Part shown: positions 2,395 through 44,920 of the stretch, in pieces | Layout of the letters: every line of letters begins with the position of its first letter | How positions within the stretch are numbered: position 1 is the first letter of the stretch | Origin: an uncultured Bacteroidota bacterium | Lineage (GTDB): Bacteria > Bacteroidota > Bacteroidia > Bacteroidales > UBA12481 | Assembly: GCA_903851365.1 (NCBI GenBank) | Contig: CAINOB010000020.1 | Location: 106,986 to 170,985, forward strand | Length of the DNA stretch: 64,000 nucleotides | Direction of reading: 5' to 3' | Translations under genes and position numbers: made by a program | Notes under the pieces: generated by a model | The model's database searches: none | The model's input: only the letters and a program-made list of their open reading frames with translations | What the model was told of the DNA's origin: nothing

Positions 2395-3194
2395 AATTGG
2401 AAACCTATGAGTAATCCACAAAACCAGGGATAATTACCCAGGTAGGATGCAATTTCATGGTTTATTGTTTTACTTACCTGAACGTGAGGTTTAAAATAAA
2501 TAATTCCTTTCGTTTTATAGGTCAATTCGCAATTTAAACTTATCAGATTAAGAGATTTTTTTGAAGTTCCGATATAAGATTCATTGAATTTCCCGTTTCC
2601 CCAGCCTAATACTGCGGATGTATTGACGGAAAACTGCTTGCCAATCTCTTTCTCATATTGAAACCCATGTTCAAAATAGAGAGAACCAAAATAGGAAATA
2701 AAATCTGCGGACACATTGGAGGTGATAGCAAAATCACCTATCGGATAGGTAACACCAAGAAAAAATTCGCCAGTTGTTGGAGAATCCTCCATACCCAGAT
2801 AATAATAAATCATAACTGAATGTTCGAATTGGAAATTACCAAGGGACCAGGTATAGTCCAGATTTAAATCCAATTCATGCTCCCTCGTCAGGTGATGACG
2901 GTCGTACAGCGTAACACTGCTCCATAAGCCGGCTGTAAAATTCCTATATGAAGCCCATAAAAAAGGCTGAATAACCAACCCATCATTCACCGTAGTACCA
3001 CGCCATATATATTTCGAGTTAAAATCTGTTTCCAGGCCCCAGGTAATTGATTTTGCTGCACCCTCCTCAGCTGTTTTGACAGTTTCCTGGCACATTACAG
3101 ACGGACTGAAAATTATAAAACTCACAATCAGGCTGATAAATCTTAGGACATCCTTGATAAATCGACTAGAAAGCATCATAAATTCAAACTTCAT
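2391..3194 (-). CDS. Putative outer-membrane beta-barrel protein (TorF/Gcw_chp-like porin family)
   Basis: Signal peptide ending SPSVMCQE. Alternating beta-strand pattern with aromatic girdle residues. Segment SKYIWRGTTVNDGLVIQPFLWASYRNFTAGLWSS resembles the TorF-family pattern S.Y.WRG...Q....G.W.S. The C-terminal residue region ends in F-Q-L. Confidence 0.5.
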   Translation of the reverse strand: MKFEFMMLSSRFIKDVLRFISLIVSFIIFSPSVMCQETVKTAEEGAAKSITWGLETDFNSKYIWRGTTVNDGLVIQPFLWASYRNFTAGLWSSVTLYDRHHLTREHELDLNLDYTWSLGNFQFEHSVMIYYYLGMEDSPTTGEFFLGVTYPIGDFAITSNVSADFISYFGSLYFEHGFQYEKEIGKQFSVNTSAVLGWGNGKFNESYIGTSKKSLNLISLNCELTYKTKGIIYFKPHVQVSKTINHEIASYLGNYPWFCGLLIGFQL

Positions 3195-3284
3195 GTGTAT
3201 TGGGAATGTTAAAGTTAAAAAAATCGATTGAGTAGATGCACCTTATAATTACCGATTATTCGCTTTATGAATCAGATAAACCGC

Positions 3285-3292
3285 TAATTTTG
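3285..3292 (+). promoter_or_regulatory. TAATTTTG, match to the Bacteroidota sigma-A -7 box (TAnnTTTG). It lies only 4 nt before ATG 3297, so it would imply a leaderless or near-leaderless mRNA.
   Basis: Exact motif match read from the sequence. The spacing to the start codon is unusually short. Confidence 0.25.
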
Positions 3293-3296
3293 GTAC

Positions 3297-4196
3297 ATGA
3301 CAAAACAACCGCAATTCTTCGATCAATCTTCATCGCTTAACTTACCGGGATTAGCGGGTAAAGTTTGCGTTATAACAGGCGGAGCAGGAATAATAGGGCA
3401 AGCCCTTTGTCGGGGACTTGTCGCTAATCAAATCAGAACAGCCATTCTGGATATTAATCCGGAGTCAGCCAGCCGGTTGGCTCAGAAACTTGAATCCGAA
3501 ACCGGGGTTAGATGTATTGGGGTGGAGGCGGATGTTCTAAGCCGCGATTCTCTGGAGCAGGCAAAAAAAATCATTGAAACAAAACTCGGACAAGTGGACT
3601 TTCTGATAAATGGCGCCGGGGGAAATTCACCCAAGGCAACTACACATCATGAAAGCTACAGTCGGGATCAAGCAGGTGATTTGGCGGACATAAAGATAGA
3701 AAGGGGTACTTTCTTTGATCTGGATCAAGCAGGGTTTAGATTTGTCTTTGATCTTAATTTCATGGGCACGCTTTTACCCAGTCAGGTTTTTGGGGAAGAA
3801 ATGGCGAGAAGGGGAAATGGCAGTATAATAAATATCAGCTCAATGAACTCCTTTCGTCCACTTACGAAGATTCCAGCTTATTCAGCCGCAAAAGCTTCCA
3901 TCAATAATTTCACCCAATGGCTTTCCGTTCATCTTGCTCCAGTAGGAGTTCGTGTTAATGCTATTGCACCGGGTTTCTTTCTGACTGATCAGAACCGCTT
4001 CCTGTTGACCGATAAGGAGAATGGGGAGCCCACCTTACGGGGAAAGAAAATAATAAACAATACACCGATGGGCAGATATGGTGAACCTGAAAATCTGCAG
4101 GGCGCCGTACTCTTTCTACTTTCCGACCTCTCATCTTTTATAACAGGAGTTATACTGCCCATCGACGGTGGATACTCTGCTTACGGAGGAGTTTAA
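3297..4196 (+). CDS. SDR-family oxidoreductase, UxuB-like (putative D-mannonate/fructuronate oxidoreductase)
   Basis: Rossmann motif ITGGAGIIGQA. Catalytic S...YSAAK triad. Insertion FFDLDQAGFRFVFDLNFMGTLLP as I recall it from Bacteroides-type UxuB SDRs. First gene of an operon that also carries uxaC and uxaE. Confidence 0.6.
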   Translation: MTKQPQFFDQSSSLNLPGLAGKVCVITGGAGIIGQALCRGLVANQIRTAILDINPESASRLAQKLESETGVRCIGVEADVLSRDSLEQAKKIIETKLGQVDFLINGAGGNSPKATTHHESYSRDQAGDLADIKIERGTFFDLDQAGFRFVFDLNFMGTLLPSQVFGEEMARRGNGSIINISSMNSFRPLTKIPAYSAAKASINNFTQWLSVHLAPVGVRVNAIAPGFFLTDQNRFLLTDKENGEPTLRGKKIINNTPMGRYGEPENLQGAVLFLLSDLSSFITGVILPIDGGYSAYGGV

Positions 4197-5506
4197 TGAA
4201 AAATATTATTATCGCACAATCCGGAGGTCCTTCTTCCGTAATAAACAACACACTTAGAGGCATCATTGATACCTGCAGATATTTCCCCGATAAATTCGGA
4301 ACAATTTATGGCGGATGGCATGGAATAGAAGGTGTGTTGAAGGAGGAATTAATAAACCTCTCGGCCCAGCCGGAACAAGAGGTTGCCCTCCTTAGGAATA
4401 CCCCGGCAGCCGGAAGTATCGGAACCTGCCGGTACAAGCTAAAAGACCGCCAGCAAAAGGATTTCCAACGAATAATGGAGGTTTTTAAAGCTCACAATAT
4501 TGGATATTTCTTCTATATCGGTGGAAATGACTCACAGCACACCGCCTTTAAAGTCAGTGAGATGGCAAGAACAAGTGGGCTTGATCTTATCGCGGTCGGT
4601 GTACCAAAGACTATCGACAATGATGTCGGTGACAGTGACTTTCAGCTGATCGACCATACACCCGGATATGGAAGTGTAGCTCGATACTGGGCTTATGCAA
4701 TCCAATCGGCCAACGAAGAAAATAGCGGATCAGCACCTGCCGACCCAGTGCTGGTTTTGCAAGCTATGGGGCGAAAAATTGGCTATATTCCTGCAGCTGC
4801 CCGATTAGCCGATCCACATCGCGAGATGCCCCTGCAGATTTACATGGCAGAATCCGGAGTCAGTGCCCGGGAAATGGCCGACAAAGTAAATGACCAGTTA
4901 AAAAAAGATGGTCGGTGCATCGTGGTGGTGAGTGAAGGGTTTGAATTGAAAAATGAAGGAAAAGAGGATGGAATAATTGCTGACAGTGTTCAGCATGTAA
5001 AAGATTCGTTTGGTCATATCATTTATGGAGCCACGAAAACCGCCGCATACCAGCAAGTTGTCAACTATCTTAATGACGTAGGCCTTAAAGCCCGCGGATC
5101 AGCGCGAGGACAAGTTCCTGGAACTGACCAGCGGCATGCCATGGCTTTTGCTTCCACCGTCGATTTGGATGAAGCTTATAAAGTTGGGCAGAAAGCTGTG
5201 GATATTGCTCTTAACGAAGGAAATGGATGGATGGCAACTATTCTGAGGGATCCCGGCCCGATATATCATGTTCGTTATGATAAAGTGGCTCTCGAAAAGG
5301 TCGCCCTTTCAGAACGGAGTTTTCCCGATAAATGGATCGCCCCGGGCAGGGTGGACGTAACTGATGATTTTATCAGTTATGCCACACCTCTGATCGGTTT
5401 AGACTGGCCATCAATACCTCTGGTTAATGGGCTTCAGAGATTTACCAGATTCAACCTCATATTTGCACAAAAAAAACTGGACAATTATAAACTCGAAGCG
5501 GAATGA
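4196..5506 (+). CDS. Phosphofructokinase-family (PFK/PfpB-like) sugar kinase with PPi-type signature residues
   Basis: PFK motifs SGGPSSVINN, GSIGTCRY, IGGNDSQ, PKTIDNDV, QAMGRKIGY, VVSEG, GTDQRHA. The start overlaps the SDR stop (TAATG). Confidence 0.75.
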   Translation: MKNIIIAQSGGPSSVINNTLRGIIDTCRYFPDKFGTIYGGWHGIEGVLKEELINLSAQPEQEVALLRNTPAAGSIGTCRYKLKDRQQKDFQRIMEVFKAHNIGYFFYIGGNDSQHTAFKVSEMARTSGLDLIAVGVPKTIDNDVGDSDFQLIDHTPGYGSVARYWAYAIQSANEENSGSAPADPVLVLQAMGRKIGYIPAAARLADPHREMPLQIYMAESGVSAREMADKVNDQLKKDGRCIVVVSEGFELKNEGKEDGIIADSVQHVKDSFGHIIYGATKTAAYQQVVNYLNDVGLKARGSARGQVPGTDQRHAMAFASTVDLDEAYKVGQKAVDIALNEGNGWMATILRDPGPIYHVRYDKVALEKVALSERSFPDKWIAPGRVDVTDDFISYATPLIGLDWPSIPLVNGLQRFTRFNLIFAQKKLDNYKLEAE

Positions 5507-6393
5507 ATGCTATGACCAATCACGATATTTTGTCAAATCTCAGGCCCGACAAGGACTTTTTCATTGGCATTGATTCCGATGGCTGTGCTTTTGATACGAT
5601 GGAAATCAAACAAAAAGAGTGTTTTTGTCCGAACTTCATAAAATTCTGGGGTTTTCAACCGGTGGCAACTGCTGCCAGGCAAACCTGGGAATTTGTTAAC
5701 CTGTATTCATCGCATCGCGGCACCAATAGATTCCTTGCCGTGATTGAAACTTTCCGGTTACTGAGTGAACGAAAAGAGGTCAGGGCCAGGAATTTTAAAA
5801 TGCCGGAAATTACTGCCCTGAAGGAATGGGTAAGAAATGAAACACGATTGGGCAACCCCGTTTTAGCTGAATATGCGGCAATAGTAAAGGACCCTGAAAT
5901 TGACCGCGCATTGGCCTGGTCGAAAAAAGTAAATGAGGATATCAGCCAAATGATCTTCGGCATTCCGCCATTTCCTATGGTCAGGGAAAGTTTGGCCCGC
6001 CTCAAGGATTCGGCTGATATGATTGTTGTTTCGCAAACTCCGGTTGAAGCGCTAAAACGCGAATGGGAAGAACATGATATTGACAAGTATACCAAGCTGA
6101 TCGCGGGTCAGGAATTCGGCACAAAATCCGAACATTTGAAATTCGCTGCGAAAGGAAAATATCCCGATTCACATATCCTGATGATCGGGGATGCTCCGGG
6201 TGACCTGAAAGCCGCACGCAATAATGGTGTTTTGTTCTACCCCATCAATCCTGGCACCGAGGATATTTCGTGGGAGCGATTTTATAAAGAAGGTATCGAC
6301 AAATTTCTGACAGGACAATTTATCGGATCCTATCAGGATAAATTGATTGCTGATTTCGATAAATTATTGCCTGTAACACCTTACTGGGCATAA
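5503..6393 (+). CDS. HAD-superfamily hydrolase (putative sugar-phosphate/acid-sugar phosphatase)
   Basis: HAD motif I IGIDSDGCAFDT (DxDG), motif III K, motif IV MIGDAPGDLKAA. ATGA overlap with the PFK-like gene. Confidence 0.7.
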   Translation: MNAMTNHDILSNLRPDKDFFIGIDSDGCAFDTMEIKQKECFCPNFIKFWGFQPVATAARQTWEFVNLYSSHRGTNRFLAVIETFRLLSERKEVRARNFKMPEITALKEWVRNETRLGNPVLAEYAAIVKDPEIDRALAWSKKVNEDISQMIFGIPPFPMVRESLARLKDSADMIVVSQTPVEALKREWEEHDIDKYTKLIAGQEFGTKSEHLKFAAKGKYPDSHILMIGDAPGDLKAARNNGVLFYPINPGTEDISWERFYKEGIDKFLTGQFIGSYQDKLIADFDKLLPVTPYWA

Positions 6394-6396
6394 ATA

Positions 6397-7665
6397 ATGA
6401 TTCTATTTTCCAATGGATCGGAGCATCACGACCTTACCGACAGCGATTTAAAGGAAGGTTTGTACGCAGCGCTCAGCAAAATTGGGAGCCGTAAGAGAAT
6501 ATTGCTCATTCCCCCTGATATCACCCGAATCCATTCGAGAGCTGGTGAATTAACCGCAATGGCCTGGAATTATTATGGGGATAAGGTTTCGGATATATTA
6601 CCGGCACTCGGGACGCACAAACCCATGAATTCGGGTGAATTGGATCGAATGTTTCCCGGCCTTCCCCACAGCCTTTTCAGGGTGCACGATTGGCGAAATG
6701 ATATTACCAGGTTAGGTGAAGTTCCTTCGGATTTCATTTCAAAAGTCTCCGATGGAGCATTAAATTATATAGTGCCGGTTGAACTAAACACACTGATTTG
6801 CAATGGGAAACACGACTTGATCCTATCATTGGGCCAGGTTGTGCCACATGAGGTTATCGGCATGGCTAACTACAATAAAAACCTTCTCATCGGTTGCGGA
6901 GGTCCTGAAAGCATCAATAAGAGTCATTTTCTTGGAGCTGTTTTTGGGATGGAACGTATGATGGGCATTGCCGACACTCCGGTACGCCAGGTTCTTAATT
7001 ATGCTTCCGATCATTTTCTGACTCATCTGCCTGTGGTTTATGTGCTGACTGTACTCGAGCAGGTTTCATCGAGCGAAAATCAGAAAGAAATGGCTACACG
7101 CGGCTTGTTTATCGGCACCTCAGAAGATGTGTTTCTGGCTGCGGCAGCGTTATCTGCAAAAGTCAACAATACTAAACTTGATAAGCCACTAGAAAAAGTG
7201 GTAGTTCACCTTGATCCTGAGGAATATCGGAGCACATGGTTGGGAAACAAGTCGATTTACCGCACTCGAATGGCTATTGCAAATGGTGGTGAACTGATTG
7301 TTCTCGCCCCTGGGGTGAAGGAGTTTGGGGAAGATCCGGAAATCGACAGGCTAATCAGGAAATACGGATACCATGGCACACCGGCTACCCTCGATGCCGT
7401 TAAAAACAACAGTGATCTGAACAATAACCTTAGTGCTGCTGCTCATTTGATTCATGGCAGTAGCGAAGGAAGGTTCAGAATTACTTATTGTCCCGGTCAC
7501 CTTTCGAAGGAAGAAATTGAAAATGTGGGATATGAGTTTGGTGATCTCCAATCGATGGAAAATCGTTTTATTTACGAGAATCTTCACGATGGGTACAATC
7601 ATAATTCCGCAGGTGAAGAGTTTTACTATATATCTAATCCGGCCACCGGATTATGGCAAACATGA
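6397..7665 (+). CDS. LarA-like (DUF2088, nickel-pincer-nucleotide-dependent alpha-hydroxy-acid racemase/epimerase family) protein
   Basis: PPDITRI (LarA SDHTRP), ALGTHKP (LarA ATGFHRP), and VVPH-x9-K-x15-H (H151, K161, H177). This reproduces the LarA H174/K184/H200 spacing without gaps. Confidence 0.7.
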   Translation: MILFSNGSEHHDLTDSDLKEGLYAALSKIGSRKRILLIPPDITRIHSRAGELTAMAWNYYGDKVSDILPALGTHKPMNSGELDRMFPGLPHSLFRVHDWRNDITRLGEVPSDFISKVSDGALNYIVPVELNTLICNGKHDLILSLGQVVPHEVIGMANYNKNLLIGCGGPESINKSHFLGAVFGMERMMGIADTPVRQVLNYASDHFLTHLPVVYVLTVLEQVSSSENQKEMATRGLFIGTSEDVFLAAAALSAKVNNTKLDKPLEKVVVHLDPEEYRSTWLGNKSIYRTRMAIANGGELIVLAPGVKEFGEDPEIDRLIRKYGYHGTPATLDAVKNNSDLNNNLSAAAHLIHGSSEGRFRITYCPGHLSKEEIENVGYEFGDLQSMENRFIYENLHDGYNHNSAGEEFYYISNPATGLWQT

Positions 7666-8819
7666 AATTTATTATCGACGATAAGATTCCTTTTATCAGA
7701 GGGGTTTTTGAACCTTTTGGTGATGTGGTCTATCTTCCAGGTGCAGCAATCGTGAAGAAAGATCTCCTCGATGCAGACTGCTTGCTGGTAAGAACAAGAA
7801 CCCATTGCGACCGGGATCTTCTTGAAGGAACACCGGTGAAATTCATCGCAACCGCCACTATCGGATTCGATCATATTGATACCGGATGGTGCGAGACCAA
7901 TGGAATAGCCTGGACAAATTCACCTGGTTGCAATTCGGGATCAGTGGCTCAATATATTACTGCGGCACTTCTTGAAATTGCCGACAGACTGGGGTTTGAT
8001 CTAAAGGATAAAACTATTGGAATTATAGGTGCCGGTAATGTTGGAAAAAAAGTAGAAAGAATTGCACGACTGTTAGGCATGACAGTTTTAGTCAACGATC
8101 CTCCCCGTGAAAGGGACGAAGGTCCGGAGCATTTCACCAGTCTGCCGGTCCTTCTGCAAAACTCAGATATAGTTACCTTGCATGTTCCGTTGAACCGCGA
8201 AGGAGAAGATAAAACATTTCATATGGTTGGCAGGCAATTTCTTAAAGATTTGAAACCCGGAGCCACCCTGATAAATTCTTCTCGCGGAGAAGTAGTTAAT
8301 GAGGCAGAAGTTGTGAGGGTTTTTAGGGAGTTCAGTCAGTTAGGTGAGTTAAAGAAGCCCGGTCTTTTGGTGATTGATGTTTGGGAGAATGAGCCAGAAA
8401 TAAACAGGGAATTATTAGACCTGGCGGCCATTGCTACTCCTCATATTGCAGGATATTCACAGGATGGTAAACACAATGCAACCCGAATGATCACGGATGC
8501 CACATGCAATTTCTTTGGTCTGACCGGAGATGCAGAAACGTTGAACATAGAACCATTAAGTTGCGAAAACCTTACATTGAAACCAACCTCAAGTCATCAG
8601 TCACTAATCACCTGTCACTCTATTGTGCGTGCCACTTACAATATCCTTGCCGATGATCTTCTCCTTCGGGAATCACCAGAAACTTTCGAAAAACAACGTA
8701 ATAATTATCCGATCCGACGGGAATTCAGCGCCTATACAATCGATCCGTTCCCGGAAGGGGAAATAGGACAGATCCTTAAAGGACTGAGATTTAAAAATGC
8801 AAATAACAAATTGATTTAA
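7662..8819 (+). CDS. pdxB: D-isomer-specific 2-hydroxyacid dehydrogenase, PdxB-like (4-phosphoerythronate dehydrogenase family)
   Basis: N-terminus MKFIIDDKIPFIRG. NAD fold GIIGAGNVGKKV. Catalytic SSRGEVV / ENEP / HIAGYS. C-terminal extension as in PdxB. ATG 7662 gives an ATGA overlap with the LarA-like stop. The ORF track starts at 7653. Confidence 0.6.
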   Translation: MKFIIDDKIPFIRGVFEPFGDVVYLPGAAIVKKDLLDADCLLVRTRTHCDRDLLEGTPVKFIATATIGFDHIDTGWCETNGIAWTNSPGCNSGSVAQYITAALLEIADRLGFDLKDKTIGIIGAGNVGKKVERIARLLGMTVLVNDPPRERDEGPEHFTSLPVLLQNSDIVTLHVPLNREGEDKTFHMVGRQFLKDLKPGATLINSSRGEVVNEAEVVRVFREFSQLGELKKPGLLVIDVWENEPEINRELLDLAAIATPHIAGYSQDGKHNATRMITDATCNFFGLTGDAETLNIEPLSCENLTLKPTSSHQSLITCHSIVRATYNILADDLLLRESPETFEKQRNNYPIRREFSAYTIDPFPEGEIGQILKGLRFKNANNKLI

Positions 8820-8842
8820 TATACTTTAATGCATCAGGCATT

Positions 8843-10273
8843 ATGAATAATAAAAGTAACATCGGCCTTATCGGCCTCGCCGTAATGGGAGAAAATCTGG
8901 TGATGAATATGGCAAATCACGGATTTAATGTGAGTGTTTTTAATCGTTCACCCGAGAGAACAGATAAATTTCTTGCCGGTGGAGCCAAGGGAAAAACTAT
9001 TAAGGGATTCCACACCCTTGAGGAATTTGTCGCCTCATTGGAAAGCCCTAAGAAAGTCATGATGATGGTAAAAGCGGGCACCCCGGTTGACGACCTTATT
9101 GAGCAATTGATACCGCTTATGGAGAAGGGCGATGTTATTATCGATGGCGGAAACAGCCATTATCCTGATACCAACAGACGAACTGCATACGTTGAGAGCC
9201 GTGGTTTATTTTTCATCGGCACCGGCGTATCCGGCGGGGAAGAAGGTGCACTCAAGGGCCCCTCCATTATGCCTGGCGGATCAAGAGCAGCCTGGGAACT
9301 CGTTAAACCAATATTCCAGACGATAGCTGCTAAAGTGGAAGGTGGCACGCCCTGTTGCGAATGGGTGGGAGAAAACGGAGCCGGTCATTTTGTCAAGATG
9401 GTTCATAACGGAATTGAATATGGCGATATGCAGCTTATCTGTGAAGCTTATCAGATCATGAAAGATCGCCTCCACCTTTCACCGGATGAGATGTCGGCAG
9501 TATTTGCCGAGTGGAACAAAGGAGAATTGGACAGCTATCTGATTGAAATAACTGCAGATATCCTGAAATTTAAAAACGAGGAGGGAAAACACCTGGTTGA
9601 TCTTATCCTGGATGCCGCCGGGCAAAAAGGGACCGGTCAATGGACTGCCAAGGCGGCCCTTGAACTTGGCGTTCCACTGACATTGATCACCGAATCGGTA
9701 TTTTCGCGCAGCCTGTCAGCTATGAAAGAAGAACGGGTATTAGCAGCTGATACTCTAAAAGACAAAAGACTTCAAGACATTAAGACGAATAGACAGGAAG
9801 ACCTGAAGAAAGCGATTGAAGAAATCAGACAAGCGTTGTATGCCGCCAAGATCATTTCTTATACCCAGGGATATATGCTGATGCAAGCTGCTGCAAAAGA
9901 ATATGGATGGAATCTGAATTATGGCGGAATCGCTTTGATGTGGCGGGGTGGCTGTATTATCCGTTCTGCTTTCCTTGGCAAAATTAAAGAGGCTTATGAG
10001 CGTGATTCCACCTTGACCAACCTGCTGCTGGATCCATTTTTCCGAGGTCAGATTGAAAAATCACAAAGTTCCTGGCGAAAAGTTGTATCTGAAGCCATAC
10101 TAACTGGAATTCCGGTACCAGCACTCTCAGCATCAATTTCCTTTTTCGACGGATATCGCAGCGAGCGACTGCCAGCAAACTTATTACAAGCTCAACGTGA
10201 CTATTTCGGCGCCCATACTTATGAGCGGATCGACCGCCGACGGGGAGAGTTTTTTCATACTCAATGGATTTAG
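8843..10273 (+). CDS. gnd: 6-phosphogluconate dehydrogenase, decarboxylating
   Basis: IGLIGLAVMGENLVMNMANHGF NADP fold. GHFVKMVHNGIEYGDMQLICEAY signature. 476 aa, full-length. Confidence 0.95.
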   Translation: MNNKSNIGLIGLAVMGENLVMNMANHGFNVSVFNRSPERTDKFLAGGAKGKTIKGFHTLEEFVASLESPKKVMMMVKAGTPVDDLIEQLIPLMEKGDVIIDGGNSHYPDTNRRTAYVESRGLFFIGTGVSGGEEGALKGPSIMPGGSRAAWELVKPIFQTIAAKVEGGTPCCEWVGENGAGHFVKMVHNGIEYGDMQLICEAYQIMKDRLHLSPDEMSAVFAEWNKGELDSYLIEITADILKFKNEEGKHLVDLILDAAGQKGTGQWTAKAALELGVPLTLITESVFSRSLSAMKEERVLAADTLKDKRLQDIKTNRQEDLKKAIEEIRQALYAAKIISYTQGYMLMQAAAKEYGWNLNYGGIALMWRGGCIIRSAFLGKIKEAYERDSTLTNLLLDPFFRGQIEKSQSSWRKVVSEAILTGIPVPALSASISFFDGYRSERLPANLLQAQRDYFGAHTYERIDRRRGEFFHTQWI

Positions 10274-10284
10274 AAAAAAGCAAA

Positions 10285-11697
10285 ATGAAACCATTTCCAG
10301 ATTCGAAATTTCTCCTGACCAATCCTGTTGCAGAACGTCTTTATTCAGGTCAGGCTGCTAAAATGCCGGTAATCGATTACCATTCGCATTTGAGTCCCAG
10401 GATGATTGCTGAGGACCATCAATTTGAGAATCTGACCCAGGCATGGTTATACGGTGATCACTATAAATGGAGGGCCATGAGGGCTAATGGCGTGCCCGAA
10501 AGATACATTACCGGTGATGCCACTGATTACGAAAAATTCGAGAAATGGGCTGAGACAGTGCCTTACACCATGGGAAATCCACTCTTTCACTGGACCCATC
10601 TTGAACTACAACGTTACTTTGGAATCACCAGTCAACTGTCACCGGTCACCTGCCACAGTATTTACGAGAAAGCTTCGGCCATGCTAAGAACCGCCGAATT
10701 CTCTGTTCACTCCCTTCTCGAAAAAATGAATGTTGAATTGGTTTGTACAACAGATGATCCGCTGGATTCACTCGATTATCATCGTAGTATCGCCGATTCA
10801 GACTGGGGCATTAAAGTGCTGCCAACCTGGCGCCCGGATAAAGTTCTTGCATTCGATCAGACCGAAAACTGGAACCGTTATGTGGATACACTGGCCTCAA
10901 TAACCGGTATTCAAATTACCCATTTTCAAGATCTCCTGAATGCACTTCAAGTCCGTCATGATTATTTTCATAACCATGGATGCAGGCTTTCAGATCACGG
11001 GTTGGAATCCTTTCCGCCTCTTGATATCAACCCCTCAGAAACTGAAGATGCTTTTCAAACCATCCGGCTTCAAAAAGAAGGCCTTAAAGGCCCGGGTCTT
11101 AGTCAACAAATGGCAGGTGTGACACTTCTGGCCCTGGCGTGCATGGATGCTGATAAAGGCTGGGTTCAACAATTTCACCTCGGTGCACTCCGCAACAGTA
11201 ATAGCAGGAGCCTCTCTGTGCTTGGGCCAGATACCGGCTTTGATTCCATCAGCGATATTCCTGTTGCGCAACCGATGGCAAGGTTTCTCGACCATCTGGA
11301 ATCAGAAGGTAAGCTTGCAAAAACCATCCTCTACAACCTTAATCCTGCACAAAACGAGGTATTTGCCTCTATGACAGGGAACTTTCAGGATGGATCAGTT
11401 CCTGGAAAAATACAATGGGGATCAGCTTGGTGGTTCCTCGATCAAAAAGAAGGTATGGAGACGCAGCTTAAAACACTGGCCAATTTCGGTCTGCTAAGCA
11501 GATTCGTAGGAATGCTTACCGACTCCCGCAGCTTTCTTTCCTACCCCAGGCATGAGTATTTCCGGCGCGTACTTTGCAATTTCATTGGAGAATCAGTTGA
11601 ACGCGGGGAATGGCCGGACAACGAAACTTGGCTCGGTGAAATGGTTGAGAATATTTGTTATCGAAACGCCGTAAATTATTTTGAATTTGATCAATAA
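10285..11697 (+). CDS. uxaC: Glucuronate isomerase (uronate isomerase)
   Basis: MKPFPDSKFLL N-terminus. Metal site IDYHSHLSP. YGDHYKWRAMRANG. About 470 aa. The ORF track extends to 10264, but ATG 10285 matches the usual UxaC start. Confidence 0.9.
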   Translation: MKPFPDSKFLLTNPVAERLYSGQAAKMPVIDYHSHLSPRMIAEDHQFENLTQAWLYGDHYKWRAMRANGVPERYITGDATDYEKFEKWAETVPYTMGNPLFHWTHLELQRYFGITSQLSPVTCHSIYEKASAMLRTAEFSVHSLLEKMNVELVCTTDDPLDSLDYHRSIADSDWGIKVLPTWRPDKVLAFDQTENWNRYVDTLASITGIQITHFQDLLNALQVRHDYFHNHGCRLSDHGLESFPPLDINPSETEDAFQTIRLQKEGLKGPGLSQQMAGVTLLALACMDADKGWVQQFHLGALRNSNSRSLSVLGPDTGFDSISDIPVAQPMARFLDHLESEGKLAKTILYNLNPAQNEVFASMTGNFQDGSVPGKIQWGSAWWFLDQKEGMETQLKTLANFGLLSRFVGMLTDSRSFLSYPRHEYFRRVLCNFIGESVERGEWPDNETWLGEMVENICYRNAVNYFEFDQ

Positions 11698-11734
11698 CCT
11701 CCCTCAGGCAGCTAATTATTAATACAAATTTCTG

Positions 11735-12955
11735 ATGGTACTAGAAAAGTTCTCGTTCGGTATTGGCGATCGTTTTGGGAAGGAAGGCAAGGCTCAGCTC
11801 AGAGCTATCCAGGAAATTAACCGTCAGGGATTTCCTGTGGTACCAGTGTGGAATAAATCGAACCGCGAGCATGAGTTGGTTGGAACCACCCAACAGGCAG
11901 TAAGGATGGAAGCCGACGAAGCAGTAAAAGTAAATGGCTGGAATGAAAATTATTATGTAGATGCCGATCATATTACAATGGCCAATGTTGACCGGTTCAT
12001 TGATGTCAGCGATTTTTTCACATTAGATGTAGCCAGTTTCATTGGCAGGCCTGCTGATGCAAAACTAAAATCTGATTTTCTCAAGCGTACTCCCGCAACC
12101 GGAATTCCGGGTTTCAGTGAAGAAGAGGCAATATATGACATTTCACTTTTTGCAGATAATTACCTGACAGCCATCCAGGAAGTTAAAAGGTTGCATGAGT
12201 ATATTAAATCAAAAAAACCATCAGGGATTATTGAGATATCCATGGATGAGGTTTCGATGGCACAGAGTCCGCTCGACCTTTATTTCATTCTAAAAGAACT
12301 TAAACTTGCTGATATTGAACCACATACTATCGCTCCGAAATTCACGGGTTTATTTCCCAAGGGAGTTGATTATGAAGGAGATAAGGAAGTATTTGCCCAT
12401 GAATTTGAGCAGGATGTTCAGATATTAAACCTCGTAAGCGATCGATTGGAGTTCAACCATGACATTAAACTCAGCATCCACTCCGGCTCCGATAAATTCT
12501 CAATTTATCCCCTGATGCGGGACATCATTTTCAAGAACCATTCAGGCATACATATTAAAACTGCAGGAACAACCTGGCTCGAGGAAGTTATTGGCCTGGC
12601 AAGGGGTGGAGGCGATGGGTTGCGACTGGCCAAGGAAATATATTGTCAGGGAATCAAACGATTTGAGGAGCTTTCAGCCCCCTATTCTTCAGTCCTGCAC
12701 CTTGATAACAAACAGCTCCCACCACCAAAAGAGGTCCTCAGCTGGAATTCAGCCCGGTTTTCAAAAACCTTGATTCATGATCAGAGCTGTCGGGATTATA
12801 ATCTCCATTTCAGGCAACTTGTACATATTTCTTATAAAATAGCCGCTGAAATGGGAACAGAATTCATGGATGCCCTGGATCATTATCGCGAGCCCATTGA
12901 GGAACAAGTATATACCAATCTGTTTGACAGGCACTTGAGGAGGATATTCAGATAG
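11735..12955 (+). CDS. uxaE: Tagaturonate/fructuronate epimerase (UxaE family)
   Basis: SFGIGDRFGKEG, YYVDADHI and SIHSGSDKFSIYP motifs as I recall them for the UxaE family. The gene sits next to uxaC. Confidence 0.6.
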   Translation: MVLEKFSFGIGDRFGKEGKAQLRAIQEINRQGFPVVPVWNKSNREHELVGTTQQAVRMEADEAVKVNGWNENYYVDADHITMANVDRFIDVSDFFTLDVASFIGRPADAKLKSDFLKRTPATGIPGFSEEEAIYDISLFADNYLTAIQEVKRLHEYIKSKKPSGIIEISMDEVSMAQSPLDLYFILKELKLADIEPHTIAPKFTGLFPKGVDYEGDKEVFAHEFEQDVQILNLVSDRLEFNHDIKLSIHSGSDKFSIYPLMRDIIFKNHSGIHIKTAGTTWLEEVIGLARGGGDGLRLAKEIYCQGIKRFEELSAPYSSVLHLDNKQLPPPKEVLSWNSARFSKTLIHDQSCRDYNLHFRQLVHISYKIAAEMGTEFMDALDHYREPIEEQVYTNLFDRHLRRIFR

Positions 12956-12986
12956 GTATCGGGTATCGGGTATCGGGTATCGGGTT
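12956..12986. repeat. Heptanucleotide tandem repeat (GTATCGG, register TCGGGTA), about 4 units, starting immediately after the uxaE TAG stop
   Basis: Read directly: tag gtatcgg gtatcgg gtatcgg gtatcgg gtt. Confidence 0.95.
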
Positions 12987-13002
12987 CCCGCTTTCGCGGG
13001 AA
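12985..13002. terminator. Perfect 7-bp GC-rich hairpin (ttcccgc-tttc-gcgggaa) between the convergent uxaE and GH94-like genes. Possible bidirectional terminator, but without a clear U-tract.
   Basis: The inverted repeat is read directly. The loop is GAAA on the minus strand. There is no T-run on either side. Confidence 0.35.
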
Positions 13003-13023
13003 TGAGAGAGAAAGGCTTTGTGA

Positions 13024-16000
13024 TTACAATTGAATTTCAACAATATTTTCCTGTTTGTTCAGCAAGGCCAAAAATGAACCGGTCGGAATTTCTGAGCCAC
13101 CATTCCGGTAATTGTTTTTCCCAAGGGTGAAATTGATCTCTGTACCGTTGATGCTAATACATTTGGGACTATAGTTGTTTTGCCTGACCGCATATCTAAA
13201 GGTTATTGAATGACCCATGAAATCAATAGAAGCAGATAATCCATCCATCGAGTGCGGAATAACAGGATCAATAATCACTTTTTCAAACTCAATTCGCAAT
13301 CCCAGGAGCCTGGTAATCATTAGGCTGACATAAATACCTGGTCCACTTGAATATACTCTCCAACCTCCTCTGAGTGTAATATCTCCGGATTTAATAACAT
13401 CATAGAGCTCATCGGCCTCATAACGACTTTTAAATACGACATCGGAACTGCTGTAATAGCAATTTGACTGCCTTTTATCACCACAAGGAACAATTTCATT
13501 GTAATCAACAGGAATTGCCTGGCGAAGCGCCTTTACAAAAGCCTCCGCCTTACCAGTCAGAGCCAATGACTCAGCATATCGGATGTGCTCGTGAACATAC
13601 ATGAGGCCTATTTCGCGACCAAAAAATGTACTGCTTTCGGCACGCTGAAAAATGGTTTGTAAGCCACCCTGATACTTCAACGGGCGATCCATCAATCTGG
13701 CCCCATCTGGGCCCATAAGATGGTTTTCAATGAGTTCCTGATGATAGGCAGCCTGCTCATCTGTAAAGATTTCACTGATTATACCCCTCTCCATCGGCAA
13801 AAGACTGTAGTGCACACCCGTCCTGATATCCGAAGGATGAAGCATCAAACTGATGGTGTCGTCTTCTTCAACCAGACCATAACCGGCTACCACGCAGTCT
13901 CTCACAAGGTATTTATTAAAATCAGTTTTGATATTCTCACAAATATTCTTTAACCGTTCTGCTTCTATAGTATTACCAGCAAGCTGATATATTGCCTGAT
14001 ATTGCTTAAAGGCCTGATAGTTCATTTCAACGGTCCAGCTCGATATCATTCGTTGAGCCAGGTCCTTGCTGACAGGTTGAAGCGAATCGTTCCAGTCACC
14101 ACCACCAAAAGGCACGAGAGACGTTCCGGGGATAAACGAATTTATGATCATTTTGATCAGTCTCTCAACATGCTCACTTACAGATGTTTTATCGGCATTT
14201 ACAGTCACGCTTTCATGAAAATACGGAACCTCCTGGTCAAGGATTTTAAGGTCGCCGGTAACTTTGATGTAGTTGCTCAGCGCGATGATTACCCAGTAGA
14301 AAACATCTCCGTGGGAATCTTGCGCCCTTACATGCGAGTAACTGTCGAACATCCACCATTGAGGCCATCCGCCATCAACATTCTGATTAGAAAAAATAGT
14401 TTTCAAAACCATTTTTGCGGCATCATACTTTTCCAAAGTAAGCAACAGGTCAAGAGGTCCCTGCGACACATCTCGCGTACCCCAGGCTGCGCCACTGAAT
14501 TGTTCCAATCCATAAGGTGTGAGGAAATGAGTAAGTGCATTCATCCCATACCAGGGTAGTATTTCTGCAATAGCCCGAGTATCCTTTTGATCCCCTTCAA
14601 TGACGAGATTACAGCTCATTTGATGCCAGAAAGTTTGCCCGGCCTGGCAATCGATGAGCCACTGATTATCGGCGCTTTCAATTAATGAATCAGGTGCTTC
14701 CCGACAAACTTCACCAATGAAACTCAAACAAAAATCATTGGTATTACTAACATCAAGGACAAAAAGAGAACTTGGGCTCTTACGATCTAAGCCAATTAAC
14801 TCATCGCTCCCAGCCTTATAATCAGACTGATGACTGTTGATGTTAATTTTGAAACCGGCATTTGGAAATTTACTCGAAATCAAAGATCCGGCTTCGGGCA
14901 TTGCTATAAACTGATGCGGTTCAACACCTGGGATTACTTTCCAGCCGTTAAGTGTATCAAAATCATGAGTAATAAGCAATCGGACTTTTGGGCCATTAAT
15001 AACCTTAAAGTCAGTGTTTACTCTTGGCTCGGCGACAGAGGTCCAGGTGCGCACCTGAAAGCAATACCCATTTGTTTTATAGATCCAGCGACAATAATTC
15101 AGCCCCATTTCAAATGCTGATGGAACTCCAAGCAGAAAACAGAGGCCATCTAACTCTACAAAAATACGCTGACCAGATTCGCGCGAAACATTAAACTGGC
15201 TCGTACAAACCGAAAGCAGGACATTGAAATTTGTATTCCCCTGGGATAAATGCGAATTGAATACCCCAAATGCAAAAGCCGTAGTAGATACTATATTTTC
15301 ATCTGGTGTAAAACCAGTATTAGCCTGCATAATGTGTGCGTGTGGCCGATCGGCCAATGTTTCTTTTGCACGTAAAACCACATGACTCCCCTGCCCGCTG
15401 AAAAAGGACAACAGCTGCCCGTTCACCGTATCACAATGACGCTTTTCGTTACCGAAATATTGGTCGATTTCCTGACTTGTCAAATCAACGATTGGCAAAA
15501 ATTGAGAAGTATTGAATAGGTTTGAATCGGGTATCAGGTTTCGGGTATCGGGTATCGGGTATCGGGTATCGGGATTAAGATTGAATTCCAGAAAAAGCTC
15601 GGGCAGCTGTTTTAAGTCATTAGCCGATGTTGCCTTTTGATGATCAGGAAGATAAGTTGTTGCAAATGCACTGCGGCTATGACTGCCCGCACCAAGTTTG
15701 AATGGCTTTTCCTTTAAGGCAATAATCGAAGATTCCCCTGCATAATTCCCTCCCTGGTTATCAGAAAGCAAACCCTCAGGCAAACCAGTTTCGCGGTAAG
15801 ATTTGCCATAAAACTGCATTCCATCCACACTTCCGTTTGCAGCAAAATTCTTACTTGCGATCATCAGCCAGGGATACCCGACAGACTCCTTCATATTTTG
15901 ACGGCAGCAAATGACCGCCCCATAATTTGGATCTTCAAGAACCAAACGTTCAAGATACTGACTTACGTAGTATTCATTGATTAGTCCGCCTGCCATAGGT

Positions 16001-41650: not shown

Positions 41651-42490
41651 ATGGAGAATAAGATTATTCTGATCACAGGAGCTAATTCCGGTATTGGAAA
41701 GGCAACAGCCACTGCTCTGGCTGAAATGGGAGCCCATGTGGTCATGATGTCACGTGATATGAACAGGGGTGAGGAAGCACGACAGGAGGTCATGTTTATC
41801 AGTAAAAGTAACCAAGTTGACCTATTGCAGTGCGATCTTGCTAGTTTATCTGATGTCCGACGGTTTTCGTGTGACTTCATTGCCAGATATTCACGGCTGG
41901 ATGTCTTGATCAACAATGCCGGCATTTACACCGAAAAGAGGATGGAAACTGTCGATGGATATGAATATCAGATCGGCGTGAATCACCTGGGACATTTTCT
42001 TCTTACCCGGATGCTGCTCGACCTGATGAAAAAGAGTTCTCCGTCCCGGATTATCAATGTTGCCTCAGGAGCTCATTTTGGCGGAAAAATTGATTTCGCC
42101 GATATCCAGTCAACCAGAAAATATTCAGGTTGGAAAGCTTATGCCCAGGCAAAACTTGCTAACATCCTATTTACCTATGAACTGGCGCACCGCCTCGAAG
42201 ACACAGGAGTCACCGCAAATTGCCTGCACCCGGGATTCGTCAACAGCCGGTTTGGCGTAAACCGCTCCACCGGTAAAGCAAACCTGATGATGAAACTCAT
42301 GAAACCCTTTACCATAGAACCTTCTGCCGGAGCCGAAACTTCAATTTACCTCGCGGCATCCCCGGAGGTTGAGGGTGTCACTGGAAAATATTTTGCTAAA
42401 AGAAAAGAAAAGGCATCCTCCAAGGCATCATACGATCTGGTAAGTGCGGAAAAACTGTGGAATCTTAGTGAGGCCCTTACCGCAAAATAA
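41651..42490 (+). CDS. SDR-family oxidoreductase (retinol-dehydrogenase/WW-domain-oxidoreductase-like subgroup)
   Basis: ITGANSGIGKATA, NNAGI, S...YAQAKLANILF catalytic motif. Confidence 0.8.
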   Translation: MENKIILITGANSGIGKATATALAEMGAHVVMMSRDMNRGEEARQEVMFISKSNQVDLLQCDLASLSDVRRFSCDFIARYSRLDVLINNAGIYTEKRMETVDGYEYQIGVNHLGHFLLTRMLLDLMKKSSPSRIINVASGAHFGGKIDFADIQSTRKYSGWKAYAQAKLANILFTYELAHRLEDTGVTANCLHPGFVNSRFGVNRSTGKANLMMKLMKPFTIEPSAGAETSIYLAASPEVEGVTGKYFAKRKEKASSKASYDLVSAEKLWNLSEALTAK

Positions 42491-42503
42491 AATATATTAA
42501 AGC

Positions 42504-43709
42504 ATGTTTTCCGATAAAATTGTCATATCCGGAACCGGCTGTGCCCTTGCCGATTACTTATATACCGGAATTAAGTTCAACAGTCCCGAATTCCTGAAAT
42601 ACCAGTCGAAGGAAGGTGGTGATGGAGGGTTATCGCCGGGAAAGTTAGTTTTTACGGAAGAACTGGAGAAATTCTCATCAACCCCCTATCCGGAGATTTT
42701 CTCGCAATTAACCGGTGATAAACAGGCTGATTCGATAAATATCGGCGGGCCTGGTTTGGTTTCACTTATTAATACTTCACAACTTCTCAATCCTTCTGAA
42801 TTTCAAGTTTCTTATTACGGTGGAGCTGGCAATGATGAAACAGCCGATTTTATCTTCAATCTTCTGCAGAAAACACCGCTGGACATCTCAAATTATAAAA
42901 GAATCGGCGCAAAATTCACTCCATTTACCCATGTTCTTTCTGATCCCACTTACGACAATAATCATGGGGAAAGAACATTTATCAATAATATAGGTGCTGC
43001 CTGGGATTACACGCCCGACCTCATTCACAATGATTTTTTCAAGTCTGATCTTGTCTGTTTCGGGGGCACTGCTCTTGTGCCTCAGATACACGATCATTTA
43101 ACCGGGCTGCTTGGCAAGGCTAAGGATAACAGGTGCATGACAGTAGTAAATACGGTTTTTGATTTCCGTAATGAGAAACTGAATCCCGGACAAGCCTGGC
43201 CTTTGGGAAATACTTCCGAAAGCCTTAAGCTGATTGACCTTTTAATTATGGATTGTGAAGAATCGCTGAGAATAAGCGGCTGCCATACTATTGAAGAGGC
43301 GGCCGACTATTTTGCCGGGCAAAATGTAGCCTCCTTCATTATTACGAACGGCATCAGAAACCTCTTTGCATTTTCAAATGGCAAGGTCTTCCGAAAAACC
43401 GGTATCATCCAGTTTCCTGTATCAACAAAAGTTGTTGAAACGATAAAACTATTTCCAGATCTCAAGGGGGATACAACGGGTTGTGGCGACAATTTTGCCG
43501 GTGGAGCTATTGCTTCTATCGCCCGGCAATTGAAAACCAGCCAAAAAGGTGATTTTGACTTAGAGGATACGATTGCCTGGGCCACTGCCTCCGGTGGATT
43601 TGCCTGTTACTGCGTTGGAGGAACCTATGTGGAAGCGAAATCCGGGGAAAAATTGGAGAAGGTCAGCGATCTGGTAAAGGATTATAAAAGCCAAATTTCA
43701 AAATTGTGA
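42504..43709 (+). CDS. PfkB-family carbohydrate kinase, unusually long (401 aa)
   Basis: C-terminal ATP/anion-hole motif DTTGCGDNFAGGAIAS. N-terminal GTGCALADY. Roughly 70-90 aa longer than typical ribokinase-family members. Confidence 0.75.
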   Translation: MFSDKIVISGTGCALADYLYTGIKFNSPEFLKYQSKEGGDGGLSPGKLVFTEELEKFSSTPYPEIFSQLTGDKQADSINIGGPGLVSLINTSQLLNPSEFQVSYYGGAGNDETADFIFNLLQKTPLDISNYKRIGAKFTPFTHVLSDPTYDNNHGERTFINNIGAAWDYTPDLIHNDFFKSDLVCFGGTALVPQIHDHLTGLLGKAKDNRCMTVVNTVFDFRNEKLNPGQAWPLGNTSESLKLIDLLIMDCEESLRISGCHTIEEAADYFAGQNVASFIITNGIRNLFAFSNGKVFRKTGIIQFPVSTKVVETIKLFPDLKGDTTGCGDNFAGGAIASIARQLKTSQKGDFDLEDTIAWATASGGFACYCVGGTYVEAKSGEKLEKVSDLVKDYKSQISKL

Positions 43710-44920
43710 TCATTACGAACCCTGAAAAATTGGTACTGTTCGGAGCCGGGAAAATTGGCCGTTCCTTTATCGGGCAGCTTTTCAGCCTTGGTGGATATGA
43801 AATTGTGTTTATCGACACATATAAGCCTGTTATTGATGAGCTTAATCTAAAAAGGCAATATAATGTTATTATCAAAGGGCAAACGACTGAGGTACTCATT
43901 ATCAATAATGTCCAGGGTATTATGGCCGATGACCTTGACAAAGCCACAGAGGAAATCGCATCTGCCCGCATCCTTGCCGTTTCAGTCGGCATAGCGGGAT
44001 TGCCCTCAACGATCCCACTGATCGCTAAAGGCTTGCTAAATCGATATGAAATTAATCCGGATTACCCACTGGATATTATCCTTGCGGAAAACCTTCGCAA
44101 TGCGGCGGATTACATGCGTACCGAGCTAATCGGTCAATTACCGGATTGGTACCCATTTAACCGTCTCGTTGGTCTTATTGAGACCAGCATCGGTAAAATG
44201 GTGCCGATCATGCAGGAAAAAGATATGCAGGAAGACCTTTTACAGGTATTTGCCGAACCCTATAACACCTTGATCCTGGACAAGCTGGCCTTCAAGAATC
44301 CCATTCCTGACATCCCGGGCCTTTCACCTAAAGTAAACATGAAAGCATGGGTCGACCGTAAACTTTTCATTCATAATCTCGGGCATGCATCTACCGCTTA
44401 TCTTGGATATTTGTTCCATCCGGGATTTGTGTACCTCTATGAGGCTCTGCATGTTCCCGAAGTAAAAAACAGGGTAAGGGACACCATGCTTCAAGCGGCG
44501 GATATTCTCTTAGCCCGGTACCCCGAAGAATTTACTATCGAAGCATTAACTGACCATATCGATGATCTACTTTTTCGTTTTCAGAATAAAGCCCTCGGCG
44601 ACACCATTTATCGCGTAGGATGCGATTTATTACGTAAGCTGGGACCCGAAGACAGGCTGGCCGGTGCAATTCAACTTGCTTTGGAGCTGTCGTTGCCATA
44701 TAACCGGATCCTCTATGCTTTAGTTGCGAGTTTCAATTTCCGGGCAACTGATGAAAACGGTAATCAGTTTCCGGGCGATGAGGAATTCTCCAGAAAATCC
44801 AAAAAGGGGATTGACTTTATCTTATCAGAGGTTTGTGGTTTTAATGAAAAGCTGGACCCTGAAATCTATGTTCAGGCCAGGGAAATGCAGAGCGAAATTT
44901 TGCGGTTATCTGTCAGATAG
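43706..44920 (+). CDS. Mannitol-dehydrogenase-family protein (mannitol-1-phosphate 5-dehydrogenase-like)
   Basis: N-terminal Rossmann LVLFGAGKIGRSFIGQLF. Catalytic-region KLFIHNLGHA. About 400 aa. The GTG start forms a GTGA overlap with the PfkB stop. Confidence 0.6.
   Translation: MIITNPEKLVLFGAGKIGRSFIGQLFSLGGYEIVFIDTYKPVIDELNLKRQYNVIIKGQTTEVLIINNVQGIMADDLDKATEEIASARILAVSVGIAGLPSTIPLIAKGLLNRYEINPDYPLDIILAENLRNAADYMRTELIGQLPDWYPFNRLVGLIETSIGKMVPIMQEKDMQEDLLQVFAEPYNTLILDKLAFKNPIPDIPGLSPKVNMKAWVDRKLFIHNLGHASTAYLGYLFHPGFVYLYEALHVPEVKNRVRDTMLQAADILLARYPEEFTIEALTDHIDDLLFRFQNKALGDTIYRVGCDLLRKLGPEDRLAGAIQLALELSLPYNRILYALVASFNFRATDENGNQFPGDEEFSRKSKKGIDFILSEVCGFNEKLDPEIYVQAREMQSEILRLSVR

Follow-up and report, generated by a model that had tools for sequence, protein, structure and literature searches.

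A LarA homolog in a probable hexuronate gene cluster

The stretch of DNA analyzed here (the window) comprises 64,000 nucleotides from an uncultured bacterium of the Bacteroidota (lineage UBA12481; contig CAINOB010000020.1, positions 106,986 to 170,985). At 6397..7665 of the plus strand, it carries an open reading frame (ORF) for a protein of 422 residues that is homologous to LarA, the lactate racemase of Lactiplantibacillus plantarum, an enzyme whose cofactor is a nickel-pincer nucleotide (NPN). The ORF starts with an ATG at 6397, giving an N-terminus that agrees with the consensus of its homologs, and its stop lies at 7665. Based on the ORF itself, on hidden Markov model matches, and on structure matches, we annotate the product as an NPN-dependent putative hexonate 2-epimerase belonging to LarA-homolog group 18.

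The protein is a clear member of this group. While the general Pfam domain Lar_N (PF09861) was matched with 34 bits against a cutoff of 23.3 (2e-8), the NCBIfam equivalog NF052594 (NPN_18_hexonate, “nickel-dependent putative hexonate epimerase”) was matched with 633 bits against a cutoff of 500 (E = 1.8e-190), over residues 10-421 of the 422. The best NCBIfam matches outside group 18 reached only about 36 bits, against cutoffs above 460. In line with this, the protein is 60-61% identical to the published group 18 proteins of Acidobacterium capsulatum and Koribacter. Exact copies of it were found on metagenome contigs only. A protein search for relatives returned at least 8000 candidates, every one of them with E ≤ 1e-5. 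The idea that group 18 proteins are hexonate epimerases is not new; it is both published and curated, as a role in hexuronate metabolism as mannonate/gluconate epimerases was hypothesized for the group by Desguin et al. 2020 (PMC7583248). GenBank names for the homologs vary, with some called “D-mannonate epimerase” and many “lactate racemase”.

Only one solved structure of a relative could be detected by sequence, that of GntE2 from Thermotoga maritima (PDB 4NAR; E = 8.5e-38). LarA itself (5HUQ) was not reached among the PDB sequences, either by phmmer or by hmmsearch with a profile of 21 family sequences, even at E = 10, and the comparison with LarA was bridged through 4NAR and through the sequences in the supplement of PMC7583248. 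The predicted fold supports the same relationship. Foldseek searches with an AlphaFold2 model of the protein (mean predicted local distance difference test score 83) matched 4NAR with a template modeling score of 0.80 and 5HUQ with a score of 0.68. The top 19 PDB matches were all LarA-family structures, and no other structures were matched in the PDB at E < 1e-10.

The gene is the fourth of eight genes on the same strand between 3297 and 12955, in which neighboring genes overlap or are separated by gaps of at most 37 nucleotides. The operon call rests on this spacing, because scans of 3000-13200 for sigma-70 promoters and intrinsic terminators gave no more sites than were found in shuffled sequence. 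The first gene (3297..4196, on the plus strand, like all genes of the operon) encodes a short-chain dehydrogenase/reductase (SDR) of the D-mannonate oxidoreductase or fructuronate reductase type (PRK08277, 376 bits against a cutoff of 281). It is followed by a gene for a PFK-family phosphotransferase of the short, pyrophosphate-dependent type (PPi-PFK; 4196..5506; PRK14072, 377 bits; 3HNO and 3K2Q, 1e-73), which is a candidate for the kinase of the pathway, and by one for a divergent protein resembling phosphohydrolases of the HAD superfamily (5503..6393; Pfam HAD_2, 2.8e-6), in which motifs I (DSDG) and IV (GDAPGD) are intact.

Downstream, and overlapping the stop of the LarA homolog by 13 nucleotides, lies a gene for a PdxB-like D-2-hydroxyacid dehydrogenase with a DUF3410 domain (7653..8819), which scored 433.2 bits against the NCBIfam PdxB cutoff of 434. 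The last three genes encode Gnd, the decarboxylating 6-phosphogluconate dehydrogenase (8843..10273; TIGR00873, 769 bits), the glucuronate/galacturonate isomerase UxaC (10264..11697; Pfam UxaC, 2.5e-195; NCBIfam, 601 bits), and a UxaE-like protein of the tagaturonate/fructuronate epimerase family (11735..12955; Pfam UxaE, 2e-50).

Some sequence features were found at the ends of the operon. About 5 nucleotides upstream of the ATG of its first gene lies TAATTTTG (3285-3292), which fits the Bacteroidetes -7 promoter motif, TAnnTTTG. At the other end (12955-13002), four tandem copies of the heptamer GGTATCG directly follow the stop of the UxaE-like gene, after which comes a GC-rich hairpin with a 7-bp stem, TTCCCGC-TTTC-GCGGGAA (12985..13002). 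This hairpin was read from the sequence and lies between convergent genes as a possible terminator, although it was not among the sites called by the consensus scan for terminators.

Cofactor residues and substrate pocket

To compare the protein with enzymes of known function, we aligned it by MAFFT with L. plantarum LarA, T. maritima GntE2, Corynebacterium glutamicum GntE1, and two published group 18 proteins, all as given in the supplementary material of Desguin et al. 2020. Seven catalytic and cofactor-binding positions fell in invariant columns: D41, R44, H74, H151, K161, H177, and K285, equivalent to D72, R75, H108, H174, K184, H200, and K298 of LarA. The same equivalences were obtained when the alignment with 4NAR was combined with the published mapping of GntE2, in which R41, K164, and H180 correspond to R75, K184, and H200 of LarA and G286 precedes the catalytic Lys (PMC7583248).

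These residues are spread over several segments, all encoded on the plus strand. The first, D41-I-T-R44 (6517..6528), contains the equivalents of the catalytic Asp of LarA and of the Arg that binds both NPN and the substrate carboxylate. H74 (6616..6618) aligns with the catalytic His108. The third segment (6847..6927) contains H151, which matches the second catalytic His, followed by E152-V153 in place of F175/F176 in the substrate loop, by K161 in place of the Lys that tethers NPN, and by H177 in place of the nickel ligand. Residues 151-177 aligned without gaps both to residues 174-200 of LarA and to residues 154-180 of 4NAR.

An initial annotation, made from the sequence alone, had matched the motif PPD41-I-T-R to DHTRP of LarA, H74 to His108, and H151, K161, and H177 gap-free to LarA positions 174, 184, and 200. 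All of these assignments hold in the alignment with characterized homologs, in which the His, Lys, and His residues superpose, and the LarA segment quoted there is exactly residues 173-200 of 5HUQ. Together with the matches to NF052594, to 4NAR, and to the LarA-family structures, the alignment confirms that the predicted cofactor residues are retained far beyond what chance would give.

One assignment of the initial annotation was found to be wrong. It had placed the LarA stretch IYQAVK on SIYRTRM, and had concluded that the Tyr was kept while the Gln and the Lys were replaced. Instead, both the MAFFT alignment and the group 18 signature published in Dataset S2 place this stretch on W281-K285 in helix α11 (W281-L-G-N-K285, equivalent to Y294-Q-A-V-K298; 7237..7251), so that Y294, Q295, V297, and K298 of LarA correspond to W281, L282, N284, and K285. 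The earlier register was off by about one helical turn, with Tyr288 lying one turn further along α11. In the corrected register, it is the Tyr that is replaced, by W281, whereas the catalytic Lys is retained as K285, which is invariant in the family.

The remaining part of the predicted pocket lies in helix α14, where S346-S355 (SAAAHLIHGS; 7432..7461) corresponds to T353-I362 of LarA. Because group 18 and LarA could not be aligned here by MAFFT, the 7 pocket positions of this helix rest on the published signature: the segment, LSAAAHLIHGSS, occurs as an identical string in ACP_2683, the group 18 member of A. capsulatum, whose signature in this helix reads S A A L I H S. The complete published signature of 20 positions, D R H H E V K H V W L N K S A A L I H S, is found in the protein, 13 N-terminal and α11 positions by our own alignment and the 7 α14 positions by string identity.

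The pocket predicted in this way carries the signature of the gluconate-epimerase branch, which comprises groups 18-20. Two features shared with the GntE enzymes are present, namely an E-(V/S) loop after the second catalytic His and a Trp at the position of LarA Y294. A signature of “E, V, A, H” has been given for this branch (PMC11770544), of which E152/V153 match the first two residues; A349-H350 would fit the last two, in a register that is our own reading of an unaligned segment.

Could the protein nevertheless be a racemase of lactate or of another small 2-hydroxyacid, as the name of its Pfam domain and of many database records would have it? The hydrophobic residues that line the pocket of lactate racemase, F175, F176, and W358, are replaced by E152, V153, and small or polar residues of α14. 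The initial annotation had considered the pocket to be unlike that of lactate racemase, and this view stands, but on account of other residues than those it had named: E152/V153 for F175/F176, W281 for Y294, and a differing α14. Identity to LarA is only 17%, and the NCBIfam models outside group 18 scored far below their cutoffs, as described above. Similarly, the protein could be an inactive relic that no longer uses NPN, but the catalytic and NPN residues are invariant across phyla at about 60% identity, which argues against decay. We consider it very improbable that the protein is either such a racemase or a relic.

Conserved gene linkage and the proposed reaction

We then looked at the genomic context of the gene in 80 loci encoding homologs at about 60% identity, from Bacteroidota, Verrucomicrobiota, Planctomycetota, Acidobacteriota, Ignavibacteria, Spirochaetales, and others. 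The most frequent neighbors encoded the SDR (56 of 80 loci) and Gnd (53), followed by UxaC (34), the UxaE-like protein (33), and a KdgK-like kinase of the PfkB family (33). Less frequent were a LacI regulator (28), an oxidoreductase of the GFO/IDH/MocA family (19), the PdxB-like dehydrogenase, encoded between the LarA homolog and Gnd (19), a transporter of the MFS family (18), the HAD protein, whose gene adjoins that of the LarA homolog (13), KduI (11), the PFK-like protein (5), and UxuA (4). The SDR, the epimerase, and Gnd form the constant core, and the linkage with UxaC and the UxaE-like protein is conserved across phyla. The group 18 neighbors listed in Table S1 of Desguin et al. 2020 are much the same: SDR, 6-phosphogluconate dehydrogenase, a ribokinase-family kinase, UxaC, and KduI (PMC7583248).

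The SDR and Gnd bracket a single missing step, the conversion of D-mannonate to 6-phosphogluconate, for which an inversion at C2 and a phosphorylation at C6 are needed. In four of the loci (L006, L031, L053, and L055), the gene for the LarA homolog is clustered with uxuA, which encodes mannonate dehydratase. The presence of UxuA in the same cluster marks mannonate as a branch point, with both of its fates encoded side by side in some organisms.

Membership of the family, the retention of the residues, and the linkage of the genes are shown by the data above, whereas the substrate, the order of the two steps, and the identity of the kinase are inferred. The most likely reaction of the LarA homolog is the interconversion of D-mannonate and D-gluconate, with phosphorylation following, and we hold this with moderate confidence. 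In the pathway envisaged, UxaC and the UxaE-like enzyme would convert glucuronate or galacturonate to fructuronate, which the SDR would reduce to D-mannonate. The LarA homolog would then epimerize C2, a kinase would form 6-phosphogluconate, and Gnd would convert this to ribulose-5-phosphate. The kinase is probably the PFK-like protein here, and would be the PfkB-family protein in most relatives. The same role in a pathway has been proposed for GntE of T. maritima (PMC7583248, PMC6978723).

By analogy with LarA and the mechanism established for its family, NPN would be tethered to K161 and its nickel ligated by H177, while R44, H74, and H151 would hold the C1 carboxylate and the 2-hydroxyl group of the substrate. 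Transfer of a hydride from C2 onto the cofactor would leave a 2-keto intermediate, and its return to the opposite face would invert C2, with H74 and H151 acting as a paired acid and base. E152/V153, α11 (W281 to K285, and R289), and α14 (S346-S355) would together form a polar pocket sized for a polyhydroxy chain of six carbons. The suggestion of the initial annotation that the substrate is not lactate, and that the enzyme may be a 2-epimerase of an aldonate or an aldonate phosphate, is thus supported by the match to NF052594, by the relationship to 4NAR, by the E-V loop, and by the conserved linkage to genes for SDR, Gnd, UxaC, and UxaE-like proteins.

Several observations weigh against a mannonate/gluconate epimerase followed by a kinase. 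No assay of a group 18 enzyme was found in the literature searched, and a paper on the LarA family from February 2025 lists only G1, G2, G5, G6, G7a, G10, G19, and G20 as confirmed groups, with group 18 absent. The operon contains no gene for a canonical gluconate kinase (GntK), only that for the PFK-like phosphotransferase, and a PfkB-family kinase is encoded in 33 of the 80 related loci described above. None of larB, larC, and larE was found among the scanned ORFs of the window; published group 18 loci likewise lack these genes nearby (PMC7583248). Between the catalytic His and the Lys predicted to tether NPN, positions 156-161 (6862-6879) read G-MANYN-K in group 18 versus G-FSGGx-K in LarA, GntE1, and GntE2. 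Finally, high KM values for D-mannonate, 9 to 120 mM, have been published for GntE enzymes, so that the native substrate may be something other than free mannonate.

This last point also favors an alternative in which phosphorylation comes first, and the LarA homolog is a 6-phosphomannonate 2-epimerase that hands its product to Gnd. In extracts of Lactobacillus suebicus, mannonate was phosphorylated and then epimerized (Valk et al. 2020, PMC6978723), and a GntE homolog was present in the proteome of cultures of this species grown on galacturonate, while the activity was left without assigned genes (PMC6978723). Among the 80 loci, the commonest order that includes a kinase gene is SDR-kinase-LarA homolog-Gnd, seen in at least 12 gene runs versus 3 with SDR-LarA homolog-kinase-Gnd. 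This order is colinear with a route in which phosphorylation comes first, and often no other gene separates that for the LarA homolog from gnd. In addition, group 18 has basic residues that are absent from groups 19 and 20 (K175, R291, R359, and R100 in the protein).

Against this, free D-mannonate is a substrate of GntE2, GntE1, and LarAH15, each of which converts it, with kcat values of 59-197 per second. Gene order gives weak and mixed evidence for the order of the steps, and the 6-phosphate site in group 18 is a putative one. Phosphorylation before epimerization therefore appears to us a tentative alternative, well behind epimerization of free D-mannonate.

The identity of the kinase bears on both routes. 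The window, like four further loci that have the operon, carries PFK-like and HAD genes in the place of the PfkB kinase gene (the loci with a PFK-like gene being L002, L023, L050, L053, and L077). Both types of kinase gene together were found in none of the 80 loci, while the PfkB kinase gene alone was found in 33 and the PFK-like gene alone in 5. The linked PFK-like proteins form a subfamily with about 72% identity, the closest structures of which are the short PPi-PFKs 3HNO and 3K2Q. Compared with 3HNO, the subfamily has GGNDS for GGGDS, an insert of five residues after PKTIDND, a Pro for the Lys nine residues before MGR, and an insert before the QR motif. The position nine residues before MGR is one we take to be that of Arg162, a ligand of the 6-phosphate of fructose-6-phosphate in classical PFKs. 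Together, these changes suggest an altered substrate, and make the PFK-like protein a candidate for the pathway kinase. The HAD gene was also considered as a replacement of the PfkB kinase gene, but was rejected, as in locus L059, which has the HAD gene, a PfkB fragment immediately precedes the gene for the LarA homolog. Mutual exclusion thus holds only between the PFK-like and PfkB kinase genes.

For the HAD and PdxB-like proteins, a speculative role can be put forward. 6-Phosphogluconate dehydrogenase is potently inhibited by 4-phosphoerythronate, and one idea is that these two enzymes might remove this compound. Combining this with the order of steps in which phosphorylation comes first, group 18 could consist of 6-phosphomannonate/6-phosphogluconate 2-epimerases, acting with a specialized, possibly PPi-dependent kinase of the PFK family, and with an HAD phosphatase and a PdxB-like enzyme that control side products around Gnd. 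The PFK-family enzyme would then have lost the basic residue that aligns with the 6-phosphate-binding site for fructose-6-phosphate. We regard this combined scheme as doubtful.

A further alternative is that the LarA homolog epimerizes another sugar acid at C2, such as an aldarate, altronate, idonate, or a 2-keto-3-deoxy derivative. Desguin et al. 2020 assigned group 18 a generic “hexonate” and noted that the native substrate of group 19 may be an isomer or an aldarate (PMC7583248), and KduI, the GFO/IDH/MocA oxidoreductases, and the PdxB-like dehydrogenase recur nearby. However, the strongest and most widespread partners, SDR and Gnd, bracket exactly the conversion of mannonate to gluconate or its 6-phosphate, and enzymes acting on other acids were not consistently linked. 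It is therefore unlikely that another acid is the substrate.

Should the favored conversion of D-mannonate to D-gluconate hold, the operon would provide a redox-neutral route from uronic acids derived from pectin or other glycans to ribulose-5-phosphate, in Bacteroidota and in many other phyla, such that uronic acids of plant origin would enter the pentose phosphate pathway. This route would bypass the classical branch through mannonate dehydratase and 2-keto-3-deoxygluconate, and would depend on nickel and the NPN cofactor. Group 18, with its predicted function, is widespread, and conservation is strong, with members from different phyla being about 60% identical. If phosphorylation came first instead, group 18 would account for the 6-phosphomannonate 2-epimerase activity of L. 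suebicus.

Elsewhere, the window has the features usual for Bacteroidota, with SusC/SusD proteins, a Por secretion tail, and a glycan utilization locus. This polysaccharide utilization locus (13024-36312, minus strand) encodes an SOGP-type 1,2-beta-oligoglucan phosphorylase, a GH35-like protein, an MFS_2 transporter, two PF10091 “glycoamylase” proteins, SusD, SusC, and a Y_Y_Y hybrid regulator, and it looks like a system for beta-1,2-glucan. A separate cluster (41651-44920) encodes an SDR, a PfkB-like kinase of 401 residues without an NCBIfam match, and a protein resembling mannitol-1-phosphate dehydrogenase. The PfkB-like gene in this region (42504-43709) was set aside, since its product bears no relationship to the PfkB kinase that accompanies LarA homologs. 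At 55543-56832, a protein of 429 residues with two tandem class II aldolase domains is encoded, whose best match was 3-oxo-tetronate 4-phosphate decarboxylase, with 184 bits against a cutoff of 250.

Comparison with characterized systems

The closest published counterparts are the group 18 proteins of Desguin et al. 2020, such as ACP_2683 of A. capsulatum, which have the same 20-position signature and the same neighbors, namely SDR, Gnd, a ribokinase-family kinase, and UxaC. Compared with most members of the group, the operon in the window differs by having PFK-like and HAD genes in place of the PfkB kinase gene, and by the additional PdxB-like gene.

The closest enzyme with a demonstrated reaction is GntE2 (LarAH20; TM0442, PDB 4NAR) of T. 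maritima, a D-gluconate/D-mannonate 2-epimerase (PMC7583248). It shares with our protein the fold and the catalytic and NPN residues. In both, a Glu follows the second catalytic His, a Trp stands at the position of Y294, and a basic residue is found four positions beyond the catalytic Lys. The genomic contexts are also alike in containing genes for an SDR fructuronate reductase and Gnd. The two proteins are only 24-26% identical, however, and differ in the loop (E-S in GntE2, E-V here), in the motif GFSGGLK versus GMANYNK, in the residue before the catalytic Lys (G286 versus N284), and in the location of the basic residue of α14. The kinases differ as well: GntK of T. maritima is, we presume, of the FGGY type, while those considered here are of the PfkB or PFK-like type. 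In T. maritima, the gntE gene lies between the genes for fructuronate reductase and gluconate kinase (PMC6978723).

GntE1 of C. glutamicum (LarAH19) and LarAH15 also fall in the GntE branch. GntE1, for which D-mannonate epimerase activity has been measured, has the E-V loop in common with our protein at about 29% identity. Group 19 proteins are often encoded beside larB, larC, and larE, whereas those of group 18 are not. The pocket of LarAH15 from Phytophthora nicotianae, compared here by its description only, is described as similar to those of the earlier GntEs. The L. plantarum LarA (5HUQ) is more distant: the seven catalytic and NPN residues are common to both proteins, but F175, F176, Y294, and W358 have given way to Glu, Val, Trp, and small or polar residues.

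Lastly, the 6-phosphomannonate 2-epimerase of L. suebicus, a term that in the literature searched was used by Valk et al. 2020 only, stands at the same metabolic junction of hexuronate, mannonate, 6-phosphogluconate, and Gnd. Its activity was described in extracts only, with a phosphorylated acid as the substrate and GntK-like proteins as candidate kinases, and our comparison with it is by description only.

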